A DNA stretch of 10,821 nt, from the UHGV virus genome UHGV-1747927; one strand, written 5' to 3'. Of the stretch, positions 2,860-10,765 are shown one piece after another; positions within the stretch are counted from its first letter, which is position 1, and every line of letters starts with the position of its first letter. The position numbers and the translations under genes were made by a program. The notes beneath the pieces are model-generated. The model had not been told where the DNA came from, did not search any database, and saw nothing but the letters and a program-made list of their open reading frames with translations. The DNA comes from a virus.

Positions 2860-3051
2860 TTATTTTTTATGCCTGTAACCCCATTCTTCCAGCAACCTTG
2901 CGGCGTACCACCCAAGAAACAAAGGAAAGAACATTACAATGAGATATTCCCCGCCACGGTCAATGTTCGAAATTGACCAGATTACGATGTAACCAGTGCA
3001 GGACAGGAATATTACAAACCCCAAAAAGCTACTTCGTCGACTCATGCTCAC
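2860..3051 (-). CDS. Small predicted membrane protein (63 aa, two hydrophobic segments)
   Basis: ORF in a co-oriented packed array. It contains two hydrophobic stretches (FLGFVIFLSCTGYIVIW and YLIVMFFPLFLGWY). Confidence 0.4.
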   Translation of the reverse strand: MSMSRRSSFLGFVIFLSCTGYIVIWSISNIDRGGEYLIVMFFPLFLGWYAARLLEEWGYRHKK

Positions 3052-3368
3052 TCCTTCACTTTGATTCCAGCGGCGCAGATAGCCTCTACATCGCTTTCGT
3101 ATTGCGATTCTGCACCTGAGTCATAGCCAATGTGATAATCACCGGGAAGTGGGCCTTTCTTTGGCTTTTGCAGCTCAATCTCGATAGCTGCTCGCGATGC
3201 CTGCCATAAAGTCCACCACTCATTTAAGGAGTGACGAATATCCATGCTTGAAAATGCGAAGTACCTATCACCATTTCTTGCCTCGGTTATCATCTCGAAT
3301 GGTAATTTCAATTTTTTGGCAACGTATTCCTCAAACTTCTTTCTTGATTCGTCCATATCACTCTCCAT
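3048..3368 (-). CDS. Hypothetical protein (106 aa)
   Basis: Long ORF whose stop overlaps the next start (ATGA). It occupies the slot between the replication genes and ninB where lambda carries ren. Confidence 0.5.
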   Translation of the reverse strand: MESDMDESRKKFEEYVAKKLKLPFEMITEARNGDRYFAFSSMDIRHSLNEWWTLWQASRAAIEIELQKPKKGPLPGDYHIGYDSGAESQYESDVEAICAAGIKVKE

Positions 3369-3649: not shown

Positions 3650-5026
3650 TCATACGTCCGCCCCTTGTGCATATCGTCTGCCACGCGCAGCAGGTGCATT
3701 TGATGCTGTGCAAATCTGTCTGGCTTCATCCTGGTCACATGCAACAAAGTGTCCGTTGCAGAACCGCTGGTAAACCGTACCAAGTGAGCCAAAACGGTTT
3801 TTCGTCACGATGATTTCAGCAAATGGCGCGGCGCTACTGTTCTCGTCATATACCGCTTCCCGATAGAGCATGATGATTGAGTCTGCGTCCTGTTCAATGC
3901 TTCCTGAATCACGCAAATCTGCGTTTGTCGGGCGTTTGTTTGGTCGCTTCTCAACATCGCGCGAAAGCTGACTCAGGGAGATAACAGGCGTTTTCAGGTC
4001 TTTCGCCATCGCCTTCAGGCTTCCGGAGATGTGAGCAATTGCGAGGTCGTTGCGATCTGCTTTCGGCTTCTCAATCAGGCCAAGATAATCCGCCATGATG
4101 AGTGACAGGTTTGGATTTTCCTGTTTGTGCCGTTCTGCGATTGAGCGTATTTCTTCGACCGATAACCGCGAGGCATCGACTACCCATACATCCAAATCTG
4201 CAAGCTGACTCATGCCGTTAGCAACACGCGCCCAGCCTTCGTCATCCATCGATGCAGGATTTCGCAGTACGCTAACCGACATCCTCCCGGCGTTGGCAAT
4301 GCTTCGCTCTGCAATCTGCAATGCGCTCATTTCCATCGAGAAAATCAATACCCCGCGCCGGACGTCAGAACCAGGAATAACGCGGCTTGCAACGCCTTCG
4401 GCAATCTTCAGAGCCAGTTCGGTTTTCCCCATACCAGGACGAGCAGCGATTATCACCAGGTCTTCCGCGTTCATCCCTCCGGTGATGGCATCAAGTTCTT
4501 CGATTCCGGTCTTCAGGGTATCTGACTCTTCTCCGTTCCTCAGACGCCTGTCAAGCGTGTCAGTGTAGTCGGTGATGATTTCCCCTAACCGTACCGGTTT
4601 AACCTCGTCACGGGGCTTTCTGATGGCTGAAAGACGCTTTACAAGCTCATCCATCGCCTGACTCGATGCGTCGATGGTTCCGCTCTGAATTGGTTCACGC
4701 ATTTCATCCATGATTTCCAGCACCAGACGGCGGTGATAGTTATCCGCGACCATTCCGGCATATCCCTTCAGGTTTGCGGCACTCGGGCAGTTTTTGCTGG
4801 TCATCAGGATTGACGTGAAATGCTCCTCTCCGCACGCCTCGGCAACCATCAGCGCGTCGATTAGGTTTCTGTTTCTCGCCTGCTTGCGGATAACCTCGAA
4901 GGCTTTCCGGTAGAGCGGAATTGAAAACGCTTCCGGCTCCAGCGTTGCCAGAACGTCGCTGGCGGTTGGTGTTAATCCACCAATCAGCAGGCCACCGATA
5001 ACGCTCGCTTCGATATCCTGTCTCAT
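3650..5026 (-). CDS. DnaB-family replicative DNA helicase (458 aa)
   Basis: N-terminal DnaB-like motif (EASVIGGLL); Walker A (AARPGMGKT); and the DnaB C-terminal motifs [38 protein letters not shown]. The start overlaps the O stop (ATGA). Confidence 0.9.
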
Positions 5027-5844
5027 GCAATCCCCCTGTCTGCAAACTTCCCTTCCCGTACTCCAGTTAACGAATCTTCCCTCAGCAGGTAATCAAAATC
5101 AGCTGTCCAGCCCGTGTCGTTGTCTCCGAAGTAAAACGGCTTGGCCTGATGCACAAACGCCCTGACATACGCTCTGAAACCGTCCACGTTTGGCGTTTTC
5201 AGTTGCGGGATGATTTTCTTCAGGCGGCGTTTGCGTTTCTCGTTGACCGCAACAGCGTGTGGCAGTCTGTCACCGACTTCGGTGTTGTAGGCGTTCAGGA
5301 AGGATTCGTAGTCGATTCGTTCTGCCTTGCGACGTTCAGGTTTAACCTGCCCATCACCGCCCCCGTTAGGGGGTAAGGGGGTATTTGTATTTATTGTCTT
5401 TTGTATATTGTCTTTTGTGTTTAGCTGACTTGGCTTATACCCATTAGCCGACTTGGCTAATGTTTTATTAGCTGTTTTAGCTAATGTTAAGCTGTCCTGG
5501 CTAATCCACTGAGAAACCACCTTGTTCACTCCGATTTTCACGCCATCAGCAATGAGGAATTTACGCTCGATAAGCTGGCGCTTGGCAGCGCAAACATGAG
5601 TGTGATGAATACCTGTCATGGCTGCTATCTGCGTGTTTGTGAGTCGATCCATCGGCTTATTGAATCCGTATGTCTTGCGCATGATAGCGAGCATCACCTT
5701 CAACTGCCGGACGGTTAAATCAGCCATCAGCAGACTGTCGGTAATCTCGTTAGCAACGCGCATGAAACCATCTTCGGTATCTGCCACGCGATGCTCCACG
5801 ACCTCCAGTTGAGGCCTGTAATCAGCTAACTTAACGACGCCCAT
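5023..5844 (-). CDS. O: Lambda O-like replication initiator (273 aa)
   Basis: The N-terminal domain ([39 protein letters not shown]) closely resembles lambda O as recalled. The iterons and AT-rich tract lie inside the gene, as in lambda ori. Confidence 0.85.
5381..5505. repeat. Replication origin: four about 17-bp iterons with internal dyad symmetry plus an adjacent AT-rich tract, inside the O gene
   Basis: Iterons TTAGCTGACTTGGCTTA (5421-5437), TTAGCCGACTTGGCTAA (5444-5460), TTAGCTGTTTTAGCTAA (5468-5484) and TTAAGCTGTCCTGGCTAA (5488-5505) are spaced 20-24 bp apart. The AT-rich tract at 5381-5420 contains ATTGTCTTTTGT direct repeats. Confidence 0.6.
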
Positions 5845-5992
5845 GTTTCACTCCTGCTTTGGCTAGTCTGTAAACACCAACAAGGCGCTCTGCGAACGCC
5901 CTGTTATTTGCTGCGGCTACCACTAATCCCTCAGGTGAATCAGGGTGTCGAATCTCTTCTTTTTCCTGGTATTTCTTACGACGTTTTGTCAT
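5831..5992 (-). CDS. Small basic ORF (53 aa) between cII and O
   Basis: Not in the ORF track; found by hand. AGGAG lies 5 nt upstream of the ATG. It encodes [53 protein letters not shown]. The 3' end overlaps the O start by 14 nt and carries the O Shine-Dalgarno. Confidence 0.4.
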   Translation of the reverse strand: MTKRRKKYQEKEEIRHPDSPEGLVVAAANNRAFAERLVGVYRLAKAGVKHGRR

Positions 5993-6024
5993 AATTACTC
6001 CTGTGGATTGATCCAGTAATTCCC

Positions 6025-6321
6025 TCAGAATTGCATATCAATTTGCTCAGAATCCTCGGTGGCAGCCGGGGATTTTTTCTTTGTGATTCCATCCAATGCA
6101 TACTTAAAAGCCCTGCTAATCGGACTGATGTCTGATGCCATTCCGAAAGCACACAAGACCGAAGCAATAAATCTCCAGTCCGTTCTGCTTATCTTCGATT
6201 CATGACAGCCAATCATCTTTGCCAGACCGCGCTGGGTAAGCGTTGACAGGTTGATGAGTAAATCAGTTTCAGCGCGATCAATTTCTCGCTGTGTTGGCTT
6301 GCTATAACTTGCTTGTGTCAT
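6025..6321 (-). CDS. cII: cII-like transcriptional activator (98 aa)
   Basis: Positioned between cro/nutR and O as in lambda. The C-terminal region (KKKSPAATEDSEQIDMQF) resembles the lambda cII C-terminus as recalled. The rest is divergent. Confidence 0.7.
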   Translation of the reverse strand: MTQASYSKPTQREIDRAETDLLINLSTLTQRGLAKMIGCHESKISRTDWRFIASVLCAFGMASDISPISRAFKYALDGITKKKSPAATEDSEQIDMQF

Positions 6322-6405
6322 TTGTTAATTTTCCAATAGTGAATAGTTAGTTGAAAGGTATGCGTGGAAACGCATATGGCCTTAGTTGGTCAGATATCTT
6401 GGGGC

Positions 6406-6451
6406 TCGCTTTGTCAGCGACGTAGGACGAATGTCCATTGTGAAAAGAGCG
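6406..6451 (-). promoter_or_regulatory. nutR-like site: boxA-like CGCTCTTTT and boxB hairpin UCGCU-GACAA-AGCGA
   Basis: Minus strand just after the cro stop. boxA-like at 6451..6443, boxB at 6420..6406 with a 5-bp stem and GACAA pentaloop. The boxA-boxB spacer is 22 nt, longer than in lambda. Confidence 0.5.
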
Positions 6452-6458
6452 GTGTTAC

Positions 6459-6659
6459 TTATGCAGTTGTTTTTTTGTTACTTGGGAAGGGCTTTATTTC
6501 TTCCGCATAAACGCTTCCATCAGCGTTTATAGTTAAAAAAATCTTTCGGCCTGCATGAATGGCCTTGTTAATCGCGCTTTGATATACGCCGAGATCTTTA
6601 GCCGTCTTGGTTTGCCCAAAGCGTATTGCATAATCTTTCAGGGTTATGCGTTGTTCCAT
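6459..6659 (-). CDS. cro: Cro repressor (66 aa), lambda-type
   Basis: The protein ([11 protein letters not shown]...[40 protein letters not shown] pattern) matches lambda Cro as recalled. It is divergent from cI across the OR operators. Confidence 0.9.
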
Positions 6660-6685
6660 ACAACCTCCTTAGTACAGGCAACCAT

Positions 6686-6753
6686 TATCACCGCTAGAGG
6701 TAAAATAGTCAACACGCACGGTGTTAGAAGTTTATCCCTTGCGGTGATAGATT
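6686..6753. promoter_or_regulatory. OR1-OR2-OR3 operators with divergent promoters pR (toward cro) and pRM (toward cI)
   Basis: OR1 is TATCACCGCTAGAGGTA (6686-6702), OR2 CAACACGCACGGTGTTA (6710-6726), OR3 TATCCCTTGCGGTGATA (6733-6749). pR -35 is TTGACT (6712..6707) and -10 GATAAT (6689..6684) on the minus strand. pRM -10 is TAGATT (6748-6753) with the cI ATG 7 nt downstream (leaderless, as in lambda). Confidence 0.85.
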
Positions 6754-6756
6754 TAA

Positions 6757-7473
<717 letters not shown>

Positions 7474-7504: not shown

Positions 7505-7846
7505 ATGACACAATTTCAACTTGCATTAATCGCTAGAGAAGTTGATGGAGAAGTCATCCATCTTCGCACCAAAGACGGATACATCAATGCCACCGCGATG
7601 TGCAAGTCTGCGGGGAAGCTACTTGCTGACTATACACGACTAAAAACAACACAAGATTTTTTTGATGAATTATCACGCGATATGGGGATTCCCATATCGG
7701 AGTTAATTCAATCATTTAAAGGCGGAAGAGCAGAGAATCAAGGGACTTGGGTTCATCCAGACATCGCAATTAATTTAGCTCAGTGGCTATCTCCAAAATT
7801 TGCAGTGCAAGTATCGAGATGGGTGCGTGAGTGGATGTCAGGTTAA
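7505..7846 (+). CDS. KilA-N domain protein (113 aa) in the rexAB position
   Basis: KilA-N/Bro-N-like motifs (INATAMCKSAGK, GTWVHPDIAINLAQWLSPKFAVQVSRWV). AGGA lies 6 nt upstream of the ATG. It starts 31 nt after the cI stop on the same strand. Confidence 0.7.
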   Translation: MTQFQLALIAREVDGEVIHLRTKDGYINATAMCKSAGKLLADYTRLKTTQDFFDELSRDMGIPISELIQSFKGGRAENQGTWVHPDIAINLAQWLSPKFAVQVSRWVREWMSG

Positions 7847-7885: not shown

Positions 7886-8264
7886 ATGACAAACCGAGGC
7901 AGAGTTCCTCATACGCACTTTTCTATGCTTAATGAACTGACGTTTAACTTGGTTGCGCCACTTGAACAGGCCGGATATACGCTGCCAGAAAAAATGGTCC
8001 CTGATATTTCAGAGGGTAGGGTTTTCTCGCAATGGCTCCGTGACAACCGGGGGGTTGAGCCGAAGACATTCCCAACATATAACCATGAGTACCCAGATGG
8101 CCGGACATTCCCGGTACGTCTATACCCAAACGAATATTGCAGATTTCAAACAATACTTCAACGAAGTGTGGCTGCCTCAGTACGCTCCTAAATATTTTGC
8201 TGAACGAGACCAAAGGGCATTGACGTTGATTGAGAAAATCATGCTACCTGACCTTGATTCCTAA
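7886..8264 (+). pseudogene. Downstream ORF with apparent +1 frameshift (frames 7886-8191 and 7953-8264), in frame with KilA-N across a single TAA
   Basis: The 7886 frame looks protein-like up to about 8130 (...RTFPVRLYPNEY). The +1 frame looks protein-like only from about 8130 (ADFKQYFNEVWLPQYAPKYFAERDQRALTLIEKIMLPDLDS) and ends 8 nt before a terminator. The 7886 frame is the KilA-N frame and only one stop (7844-7846) separates them. Confidence 0.4.
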
Positions 8265-8608: not shown

Positions 8609-8710
8609 GAACTTTGGGGTGAATGCAGAAGCTAACCTTCTCGGCGGAGGCGCTTTGCAATGATTACGCTACCGGAGTTAGTCGCCCGGCTGTATTCACC
8701 GCCAAAGTTC
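8609..8710 (+). promoter_or_regulatory. Long-range leader stem enclosing about 70 nt upstream of N1 (candidate RNase III processing or translation-control structure)
   Basis: GAACTTTGGGGTGAAT (8609-8624) pairs with ATTCACCGCCAAAGTTC (8694-8710) with one bulge. The 3' arm ends 4 nt before the N1 Shine-Dalgarno (AGGAGG). The analogous stem before N2 carries compensatory changes. Confidence 0.45.
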
Positions 8711-8724
8711 ACCAGGAGGTCTAT

Positions 8725-9108
8725 ATGACACGCAGAACTCAGTTCAAAGGCAATTCACGTTCTCGTCGTCGTGAGCGTTTAAAGGCAAAGGCATTAGCTA
8801 ACGGCGTACTGGCCCGCGAAGAAGCAATAAGTTCAGAAGTATTACACCGCCCTACTCTAAGCAGAGCGCAGATTCAGGCTAAAGGTACTCACGAAACGCC
8901 TGAGCGCATAGAAGACGCTAAGCCAATTAAGTTCATGGCACAGGACGTGATCTGGCAACAGAAAGAATACAGACGCAATCTGGAGAGAGCGGCCATTGTG
9001 TACGCGAATGAGTTTGGACATAAGCAACCAGAAACTGGTGTATGTCTTCCAAATGTAGCTCTTTACGCAGCAGGATACCGGAAATCAAAACAACTGACGG
9101 CGAGATGA
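8725..9108 (+). CDS. N: N-like transcription antiterminator N1 (128 aa from the Shine-Dalgarno-supported ATG)
   Basis: First gene after pL and nutL. AGGAGG lies 6 nt upstream of the ATG at 8725. The N-terminal arginine-rich motif (KGNSRSRRRERLKAKALANG) resembles the P22-type ARM as recalled. The track start at 8623 would lie inside the leader stem and lacks a Shine-Dalgarno. Confidence 0.7.
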   Translation: MTRRTQFKGNSRSRRRERLKAKALANGVLAREEAISSEVLHRPTLSRAQIQAKGTHETPERIEDAKPIKFMAQDVIWQQKEYRRNLERAAIVYANEFGHKQPETGVCLPNVALYAAGYRKSKQLTAR

Positions 9109-10492: not shown

Positions 10493-10765
10493 ATGACAGT
10501 AGTCATTACTTATCTGGCTGACGATAACGCCAGAAATCGCCGCAGAGCACGCAGACAGGCTCAACGTGAACAGGCAATGCAAGAGCAGCGACTGGCGCGA
10601 AAAATTGCGCTGAAGCTCTCTGGTTGCGTCAGAGCAGATAAAGCAGCATCACTCGGAAGCCTTCGCTGCAAGAAGGCAGATGAATGCAGTGGAAGTATTT
10701 GCCTGCCAAACGTAGCCATTTACGCGGCAGGCTACCGGAAATCAAAACAACTGACAGCGAGGTAA
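10493..10765 (+). CDS. Second N-like protein N2 (90 aa) with a lambda-like arginine-rich motif and the same 21-aa C-terminal tail as N1
   Basis: GGAGG lies 6 nt upstream. The N-terminal ARM (NARNRRRARRQAQREQ) resembles the lambda N ARM (QTRRRERRAEKQAQ) as recalled. The C-terminal CLPNVAIYAAGYRKSKQLTAR is shared with N1. Confidence 0.6.
   Translation: MTVVITYLADDNARNRRRARRQAQREQAMQEQRLARKIALKLSGCVRADKAASLGSLRCKKADECSGSICLPNVAIYAAGYRKSKQLTAR

Follow-up and report, generated by a model that had tools for sequence, protein, structure and literature searches.

In phage lambda, cII and the replication gene O are separated by a gap of 32 nt (cII end 38653, O start 38686). A layout in which a further reading frame, 'orf', lies between oop and O (cII-oop-orf-O) was already described by Hayes et al. 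2012 (PMC3349717). That study gave lambda as naturally lacking the orf, placed the promoter pO at this site, and took as position 1 of its alignment the ATG common to lambda O, to the P22 orf48 homologs and to the HK97 gp53 homologs. The frame of the HK97 type is annotated in HK97 (AF069529) and in many later records, and other names for members of this family are ES18 gp58 and epsilon34 gp49. Searches of the literature on gp53/HK97, on the peptide sequence and on orf48 found no functional or expression study. The 'orf48' of two accessory-gene papers was considered as the P22 gene and rejected, because the name is a library number there.

The window analyzed here, a stretch of 10,821 nt from the virus genome UHGV-1747927, contains a lambdoid immunity and replication region in the orientation opposite to that of the lambda map (Table 1). 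A first-pass annotation of this DNA had reported an unannotated 53-aa ORF at 5831-5992, where lambda has only a short spacer, with a near-consensus Shine-Dalgarno sequence 5 nt ahead of its start, a 14-nt overlap with the start of O, and the Shine-Dalgarno of O inside it. The physical description was accurate throughout, including the short lambda spacer. The ORF runs on the minus strand from an ATG at 5992-5990 to a TAA stop at 5833-5831, the 5-nt spacer (TAATT) separates this ATG from the AGGAG at 6002-5998, the ATG of O is at 5844-5842 on the minus strand, and the internal AGGAG is at 5855-5851. The gap from the cII stop to the small-ORF ATG is 32 nt, the same as the lambda cII-O gap.

Table 1. 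Coordinates of features in and around the small ORF in the window.
Feature	Position	Strand	Basis
DnaB-like helicase	3650-5026	-	
O-like replication initiator, HK97 Gp54 type, 273 aa	5023..5844	-	Pfam Phage_rep_O, E 5.8e-33; PHROG 345 'replication initiation O-like'
Mosaic cassette, 204 bp: oop 5' end, pO, small ORF, first 10 O codons	5814..6017	.	BLAST block edges
Overlap of small-ORF end and O start, 14 nt (ATGGGCGTCGTTAA)	5831..5844	-	Sequence
Small ORF, 53 aa, HK97 gp53 family (PHROG 1331)	5831..5992	-	ORF call, profile match, conservation
O Shine-Dalgarno AGGAG within small ORF, codons 47-48 (Gly-Val), 6 nt ahead of O ATG	5851..5855	-	Sequence
mRNA hairpin, 13-bp stem in window allele, inner 8 bp conserved, loop is GCA codon of Ala34	5878..5906	-	Minimum-free-energy folds, RNAalifold
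CCCUGAUUCACCUG, predicted to pair with O SD/AUG region, weak	5932..5945	-	Minimum-free-energy folds, RNAalifold 4-bp piece
pO extended -10 (TGTCATAAT); CAT is complement of small-ORF ATG	5987..5995	+	Lambda match, Hayes et al. 2012
Small-ORF Shine-Dalgarno AGGAG, 5 nt ahead of ATG; counterpart of lambda O SD	5998..6002	-	Sequence, lambda alignment
oop-like antisense RNA, overlap of about 55 nt with cII 3' end; terminator stem 6049-6076	6003..6080	+	Lambda homology
cII, directly upstream of small ORF	6025..6321	-	Pfam Phage_CII, E 5.1e-34
cro	6459-6659	-	Pfam Cro
cI	6760-7473	+	

The word 'unannotated' did not survive comparison with the catalogs. The protein is 100% identical to HK97 Gp53 (AAF31131.1) and to Sf6 gene 42 (tblastn), its residues 1-53 match the 53-position profile of PHROG 1331 with an E value of 1.4e-37, and the gene is present in dozens of phage records and in RefSeq. 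Identical 'hypothetical proteins' were found in many coliphages, Salmonella phages and Stx phages, and the gene is carried by 571 of the 5,426 complete E. coli genomes, with the RefSeq label 'hypothetical protein'. The gene order cII / ORF / O is the same in the window, HK97, Sf6 and HK629. In HK97 gene 53, Sf6 gene 42, ES18 gp58 and epsilon34 gp49 the protein, its position between cII and O, the 14-nt overlap and the flanking oop/pO are as in the window; no difference from that family was found, and the window carries that gene.

Homology between the window and lambda is continuous from the 3' end of cII through oop and the Shine-Dalgarno sequence to ATGACAAA, and is lost after that point. 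The shared stretch includes the extended -10 of pO, and the small ORF uses the ribosome-binding site and ATG corresponding to those that open O itself in lambda. The lambda O start is thus, in the window, the start of a separate 53-codon frame, and O begins 148 nt further on with a second Shine-Dalgarno. On the opposite strand the start codon contributes to CATAAT, the -10 hexamer of the antisense promoter pO, and this is proposed to be what fixes the sequence of the small-ORF start site. A start-codon mutation would for the same reason also alter oop expression, which makes it a confounded test. A simple promoter scan did not call pO because its -35 is weak. The oop-like RNA has a two-hairpin fold (-30.4 kcal/mol, z -4.0) with its 3' end at about 6080 and a terminator-like site at the stem listed in Table 1; no Rfam family matched within 5500-6700, and Rfam has no model for oop.

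The length of the small ORF is uninformative, since the window has 122 ORFs of at least 30 aa and 53 codons taken alone are within chance. The ORF was judged real because of comparative evidence, which came from 261 related loci in species-representative genomes and IMG/VR. Conservation of the frame in relatives, one of the checks proposed in the first-pass annotation, was nearly complete: a frame of 52-55 aa starting with ATG was intact in 260 of the 261 loci. These loci span several Enterobacterales genera (Escherichia, Serratia, Brenneria and others), and the intact ones represent 79 distinct proteins and 113-114 distinct DNA sequences, with identity down to 57% in the homologs from Serratia, Rahnella and Brenneria. 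In the remaining locus (L173, metagenomic, IMGVR_UViG_3300012248_000001) the small ORF was fused in-frame to O. All indels in the family were multiples of three.

One explanation for such conservation is that a chance ORF lies in a non-coding recombination linker, a 'boundary sequence', and has been kept by recent horizontal spread of identical DNA. Among the E. coli records of the small ORF, 566 of 573 are at least 99% identical, and a 33-bp 'bsq5 boundary sequence' annotated in Sf6 coincides with the left edge of the cassette in which the ORF lies, as this explanation would predict. However, homologs with 57-80% amino-acid identity, from Serratia, Rahnella, Brenneria, Yokenella, Enterobacter and Citrobacter, retain the frame together with its start, its stop and the overlap, and most of their differences are synonymous. 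These diverged homologs argue strongly against a chance ORF, which is considered highly improbable.

Another proposed check, the balance of synonymous and non-synonymous change, pointed the same way. Change was mostly synonymous: in a set of 28 representatives with pairwise identity below 88%, pN/pS in the small-ORF frame was 0.28 overall and 0.18-0.20 for the central codons, whereas the two remaining forward frames gave 1.54 and 2.50. In the 113 unique DNA sequences, the summed entropy at codon positions 1, 2 and 3 was 26, 16 and 60 bits. Twelve residues were invariant in this set, most of them with highly variable third bases (P, A, F, A, E, R and G). Because pN/pS is low in this frame only and invariant residues are combined with free third bases, the comparison identifies the small ORF as a true protein-coding gene whose peptide is under purifying selection.

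Not all of the constraint appears to act on the peptide. On the best account of the locus, three cis elements lie within the gene, with pO near the start, a hairpin mid-frame and the ribosome-binding site of O near the stop. Codons 9-12 (alignment numbering; TACCAGGAAAAA) hardly vary at their synonymous sites in the family, and the unrelated orf48-type ORF has the same TACCAGGA at nt 22-29. Together with a lower pS over pO (0.54, codons 2-12), these observations fit a location of the -35 part of pO within the small ORF. It could then be argued that the cis elements account for all of the conservation, and that the frame is only a leader for delivering ribosomes to O, with a peptide of no consequence. 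Such a reading would accommodate the near-fixed codons and the shared motif, the depressed pS over pO and over the O initiation region (0.34), and the compensatory changes in the hairpin described below. Yet outside the pO, hairpin and O-initiation elements the third positions are free (pS 0.64-0.75) and the amino acids are fixed (pN/pS 0.18-0.34). The high third-base entropy at most of the twelve invariant residues, the strictly in-frame indels and the low central pN/pS likewise form a pattern that a sequence-independent leader peptide or uORF, in which the peptide is free to vary, would not show. An irrelevant peptide is regarded as unlikely.

The protein itself offers few clues. AlphaFold2, run with a 32-sequence alignment (mean pLDDT 70), predicted coil for residues 1-20, which include the segment KRRKK and have no regular structure, followed by helices at 21-29 and 31-49. 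This model suggests a basic, Lys/Arg-rich disordered N-terminus joined to one long amphipathic helix. Searches of Pfam, NCBIfam, PADLOC and PDB sequences with the protein or its profile gave no match, in the case of the PADLOC defense components at E values up to 1. An HMM search of 1.84 billion representative proteins recovered only 24 clusters of relatives, all 29-84 aa in length, and found neither fusions to known domains nor remote homologs. These searches mark it as an orphan family, restricted to prophages of Enterobacterales. With no profile or PDB match there and only 24 short relatives, any function given to the protein is a guess; the most likely guess is a dispensable accessory factor of the early or replication program that would bind nucleic acid or a replication protein.

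The junction with O is strongly conserved. The overlap was 14 nt in 256 of the 260 intact loci and 17 nt in 2, and in 258 of the 260 a long downstream ORF, O-like where it could be classified, overlapped the end of the small ORF. GGAG or GGGG was conserved 6-9 nt ahead of the O ATG in all common variants, and an SD-like GGAG or GAGG was conserved across loci upstream of the small-ORF ATG. Translationally coupled genes that overlap in the operons of phages and bacteria show this geometry, with the upstream stop inside the start of the downstream gene, a few codons in, and the downstream Shine-Dalgarno in the upstream frame, both conserved. It differs from such pairs in that coupling is here read from sequence geometry alone, with no demonstrable conserved RNA structure that occludes the downstream start.

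An RNA structure that would hide the O ribosome-binding site until the small ORF is translated could not be established. In 4 of 7 diverse homologs, minimum-free-energy folds predicted that nt 48-61 of the ORF pair with the O initiation region, and no compensatory changes were found in this long-range helix. Accessibility of the O initiation region was, family-wide, like that of synonymous resamples: no tuning of synonymous sites to hide it was seen (mean z -0.13, 15 of the 28 representatives negative), while the HK97/window allele taken alone gave a z of -2.0. Since there is no family-wide tuning for occlusion, any coupling would rest on the overlap.

The geometry also recurs with unrelated genes. 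Three unrelated upstream frames (gp53, orf48 and T5orf172) have their stops within the first five O codons, and this recurrence supports the view that the junction has been selected for termination and reinitiation. Three unrelated genes ending inside the first codons of O offer a clean natural argument for coupling. The small ORF and O are probably translated as a coupled pair, and from the arrangement we infer reinitiation of terminating ribosomes on O. The first-pass annotation had suggested a small regulator, which stays a putative role, or a device for coupling O translation; the conserved overlap geometry is what such a device would show, but a purely mechanical device is insufficient because the amino-acid sequence is itself under purifying selection.

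Two observations concern the weight to be given to coupling. The recurrent stop inside O is the best evidence available here for a coupling-selected junction. Weighing against coupling, O has a good Shine-Dalgarno of its own and could initiate independently.

The explanation favored for the locus, with slightly more confidence than doubt, is that a gene of the HK97 gene 53 family encodes a protein of about 6 kDa, stands first in the replication segment of the pR operon and is probably co-translated with O. Ribosomes would load at the strong AGGAG-N5-ATG, the site that drives O directly in lambda. They would translate the 53 codons through the conserved hairpin and over the internal O Shine-Dalgarno, and would stop at the UAA that ends the overlap. 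Having terminated there, they could restart on O, which would tie O synthesis to translation of the small ORF.

The slot between cII and O was surveyed in 80 loci selected through a shared cII protein, not through the small ORF. A gene of the gp53 type was found in 37 loci, with one further copy frameshifted, orf48 in 30, and a T5orf172 gene in three; in seven the slot was empty and O started directly, as in lambda. The orf48 gene of P22 and HK022 (48 aa, MTKQLSPYQDK..., PHROG 1913) occupies the same slot with the same Shine-Dalgarno, the same ATGACAAAA start and the shared motif noted above. It too stops inside O, with an overlap of 8 nt in 30 of 30 loci (ATGAGTAA), and like the gp53 type it combines with several O types. 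In contrast, its protein is non-homologous, the O downstream of it has a different N-terminus (MSN...), and its predicted mRNA fold is different. The hhalign probability for gp53 and orf48 was 0.6%, and only the 10 N-terminal residues aligned, a segment encoded by the shared pO DNA. The third occupant, a 214-aa gene with a T5orf172/MUG113 domain, overlapped O by 14 nt in 3 of 3 loci.

BLAST comparisons showed that the gp53-type gene moves in a 204-bp block that is 99-100% identical between loci and has sharp, recurrent edges. The edge at 6017 was found in 82 loci with differing cII and the edge at 5814 in 44 loci with differing O. The second of these falls after codon 10 of O, and the first 10 residues of O travel with the small ORF. 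Downstream of the small ORF were O proteins of the HK97 type, of the Sf6/HK022 type (with a non-homologous N-terminal domain) and of 361 aa, and in one locus (L299) a lambda-like O followed by a Toprim-helicase. This variety of O types argues against a specific partnership with one initiator, and O-type replication in general does not depend on the gene, since lambda and its close relatives lack it.

Specificity of the small ORF for DnaB-type helicase modules was also considered. The small ORF is common there, but it also occurs with the Toprim-helicase of L299, and modules with an Sf6-type O and helicase often carry orf48 instead; this candidate was rejected.

The main rival to the favored explanation is that the small ORF is an accessory gene, for example one active in host takeover, anti-defense or exclusion, that sits in a hypervariable slot at a mosaic junction and is functionally unlinked to O, the overlap being merely compact joining. 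This is possible, though held to be less probable than not. Loci with the same cII hold unrelated occupants or none, the gene travels as a sharp-edged cassette beside many cII and O genes, lambda does without it, and a small, fast-spreading family restricted to Enterobacterales prophages is typical of accessory genes. A moron, however, would carry its own promoter and terminator, and neither a sigma-70-like promoter nor a terminator was found on the coding strand around the small ORF; the only terminators near it were that of oop, on the other strand, and one inside cII. The recurrence of the stop inside O with three unrelated occupants suggests selection on the junction over accident. The lack of a PADLOC match and a predicted single helix with a basic tail, which gives no hint of an anti-defense fold, also count against an accessory gene of this kind.

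In many lambdoid prophages, a large share of them, the gene stands where lysis-lysogeny control (cII/oop) adjoins the replication module. Carriers amount to about 1 in 10 complete E. coli genomes and include the Stx-converting phages of E. coli O157:H7. If the gene sets the level or timing of O, it would affect the speed of prophage replication after induction and hence the dosage of the Shiga-toxin gene.

The hairpin in the middle of the small ORF was conserved as RNA as well as protein-coding sequence. Its eight inner pairs were kept in 73-100% of the 113 unique sequences. In 72 distinct 45-nt segments, 83% of cells were paired, compared to 34-47% in slid-partner controls, and the covariation score was 0.29, compared to 0.03-0.11 in the slid controls. 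Covariation is most informative where the first base of codon 32 (G for Ala, C for Pro, U for Ser) pairs with the third, synonymous base of Arg36; this pair was found as GC 26 times, CG 21, GU 13, UG 7 and UA once, with 4 mismatches. Serine at codon 32 has at least three origins in different sequence backgrounds, always accompanied by a matching Arg codon. When codons were permuted within amino-acid classes, a control that ignores phylogeny, the observed pairing was reached in 0 of 1000 permutations. These patterns make it probable that the hairpin is a selected RNA element. No published explanation for the covariation was found, and the hairpin covariation and the convergent stop inside O are the only points here that go beyond the databases and papers found.

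Two other roles for the hairpin were considered and rejected. The scan for intrinsic terminators did not pick it up, and there is no conservation of its U-tract. It is also not suited to the antisense strand, where many of its sense G-U pairs would be A-C; because of these G-U pairs, the hairpin can work only in the rightward mRNA.

Like lambda N/boxB, the locus combines a short basic stretch at the N-terminus of the protein (KRRKK) with a small conserved hairpin on one transcript; this likeness is a lead only. The protein does not match Pfam N_peptide (PF25694), which the two genuine N genes of the window do match, the loop is a 3-nt GCN and not a GNRA-like pentaloop, and there is no nut-like boxA. 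The Lys/Arg-rich N-terminus might bind the GCN-loop hairpin in the pR transcript as an autoregulatory RNA-protein switch, throttling its own frame and, through the 14-nt overlap, O. Alternatively, the hairpin might act in mRNA processing or stability, so that cII and O mRNAs meet different fates after oop-directed cleavage. Both versions are held to be unlikely; the switch, if true, would be a post-transcriptional brake on replication that is missing in lambda.

The small ORF (the 53-aa frame of the HK97 gp53 family between cII and O) carries a conserved mRNA hairpin within its coding sequence, and the changes in its stem were compensatory: the first base of codon 32 was tracked by the synonymous third base of Arg36. 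A published explanation for this hairpin was looked for and none was found. The start of the ORF is also shared with another element, as its ATG is included in the -10 of pO, the antisense promoter on the opposite strand. The pO/oop-like RNA unit overlaps the 3' end of cII, and there was no family for oop in Rfam.

Features located in the window
Feature	Position	Strand	Remarks
Conserved mRNA hairpin in small ORF	5878-5906	minus	compensatory changes
pO extended -10 and oop-like antisense RNA with terminator	5987-6080	plus	
KilA-N domain gene	7505-7846	plus	directly downstream of cI
101-aa ORF	7886-8191		after KilA-N domain gene
N-type antiterminator gene	8623-9108	plus	Pfam N_peptide
N-type antiterminator gene	10493-10765	plus	Pfam N_peptide

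Codons 1-10 of O (5814-5844, minus strand) are part of the mosaic cassette that carries the small ORF. The same ten codons were joined to O genes in which the domains that follow are non-homologous, which places a mosaic joint within the O reading frame itself.

Two other genes were found in the place between cII and O. A 48-aa ORF of the P22/HK022 orf48 type (MTKQLSPYQDK...), unrelated to the small ORF and overlapping its own O start by 8 nt, was present at L267:5330-5476 and in 29 other loci sampled via the same cII protein. It matches PHROG 1913, which is labeled 'tail protein', but because of the position of the orf48-type gene this label looks like a mis-annotation. A 214-aa gene with a T5orf172/MUG113 domain was encoded at L265:5330-5974 and in two similar loci; it starts at the same ATG as the small ORF and ends 14 nt inside its own O gene.

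Aberrant copies of the small ORF were seen in two loci. In L173 (IMGVR_UViG_3300012248_000001, approximately 3001-3138) it forms one continuous reading frame with the O-like gene (…RLALSHQEVSMGVARLEDYRK…), an in-frame fusion that is either real or a sequencing error; if real, the fusion hints at a physical link with O. In L306 the slot ORF lies about 32 nt past the cII stop and its A-run was one A short (CAGGAAAAGAAG), which cuts it to a 22-codon frame; the gene may be a pseudogene here, or else the homopolymer was misread in sequencing.

Two contigs that contain this enterobacterial prophage region were filed under names from outside the enterobacteria, a 'Bacillota bacterium' MAG (L001, JAEZIN010000021.1; 100% protein identity) and 'Chryseobacterium sp.' (L004, CACSKA010000001.1; 83% protein identity), likely due to contamination or mis-binning.

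Elsewhere in the window, the KilA-N domain gene occupies the place where lambda has rexAB, and the 101-aa ORF had no match in Pfam. The two N-type genes are 1.6 kb apart, and each ends in a copy of a 67-nt direct repeat, the copies being 85% identical, a sequence pattern which suggests that the pL region was duplicated or recombined.
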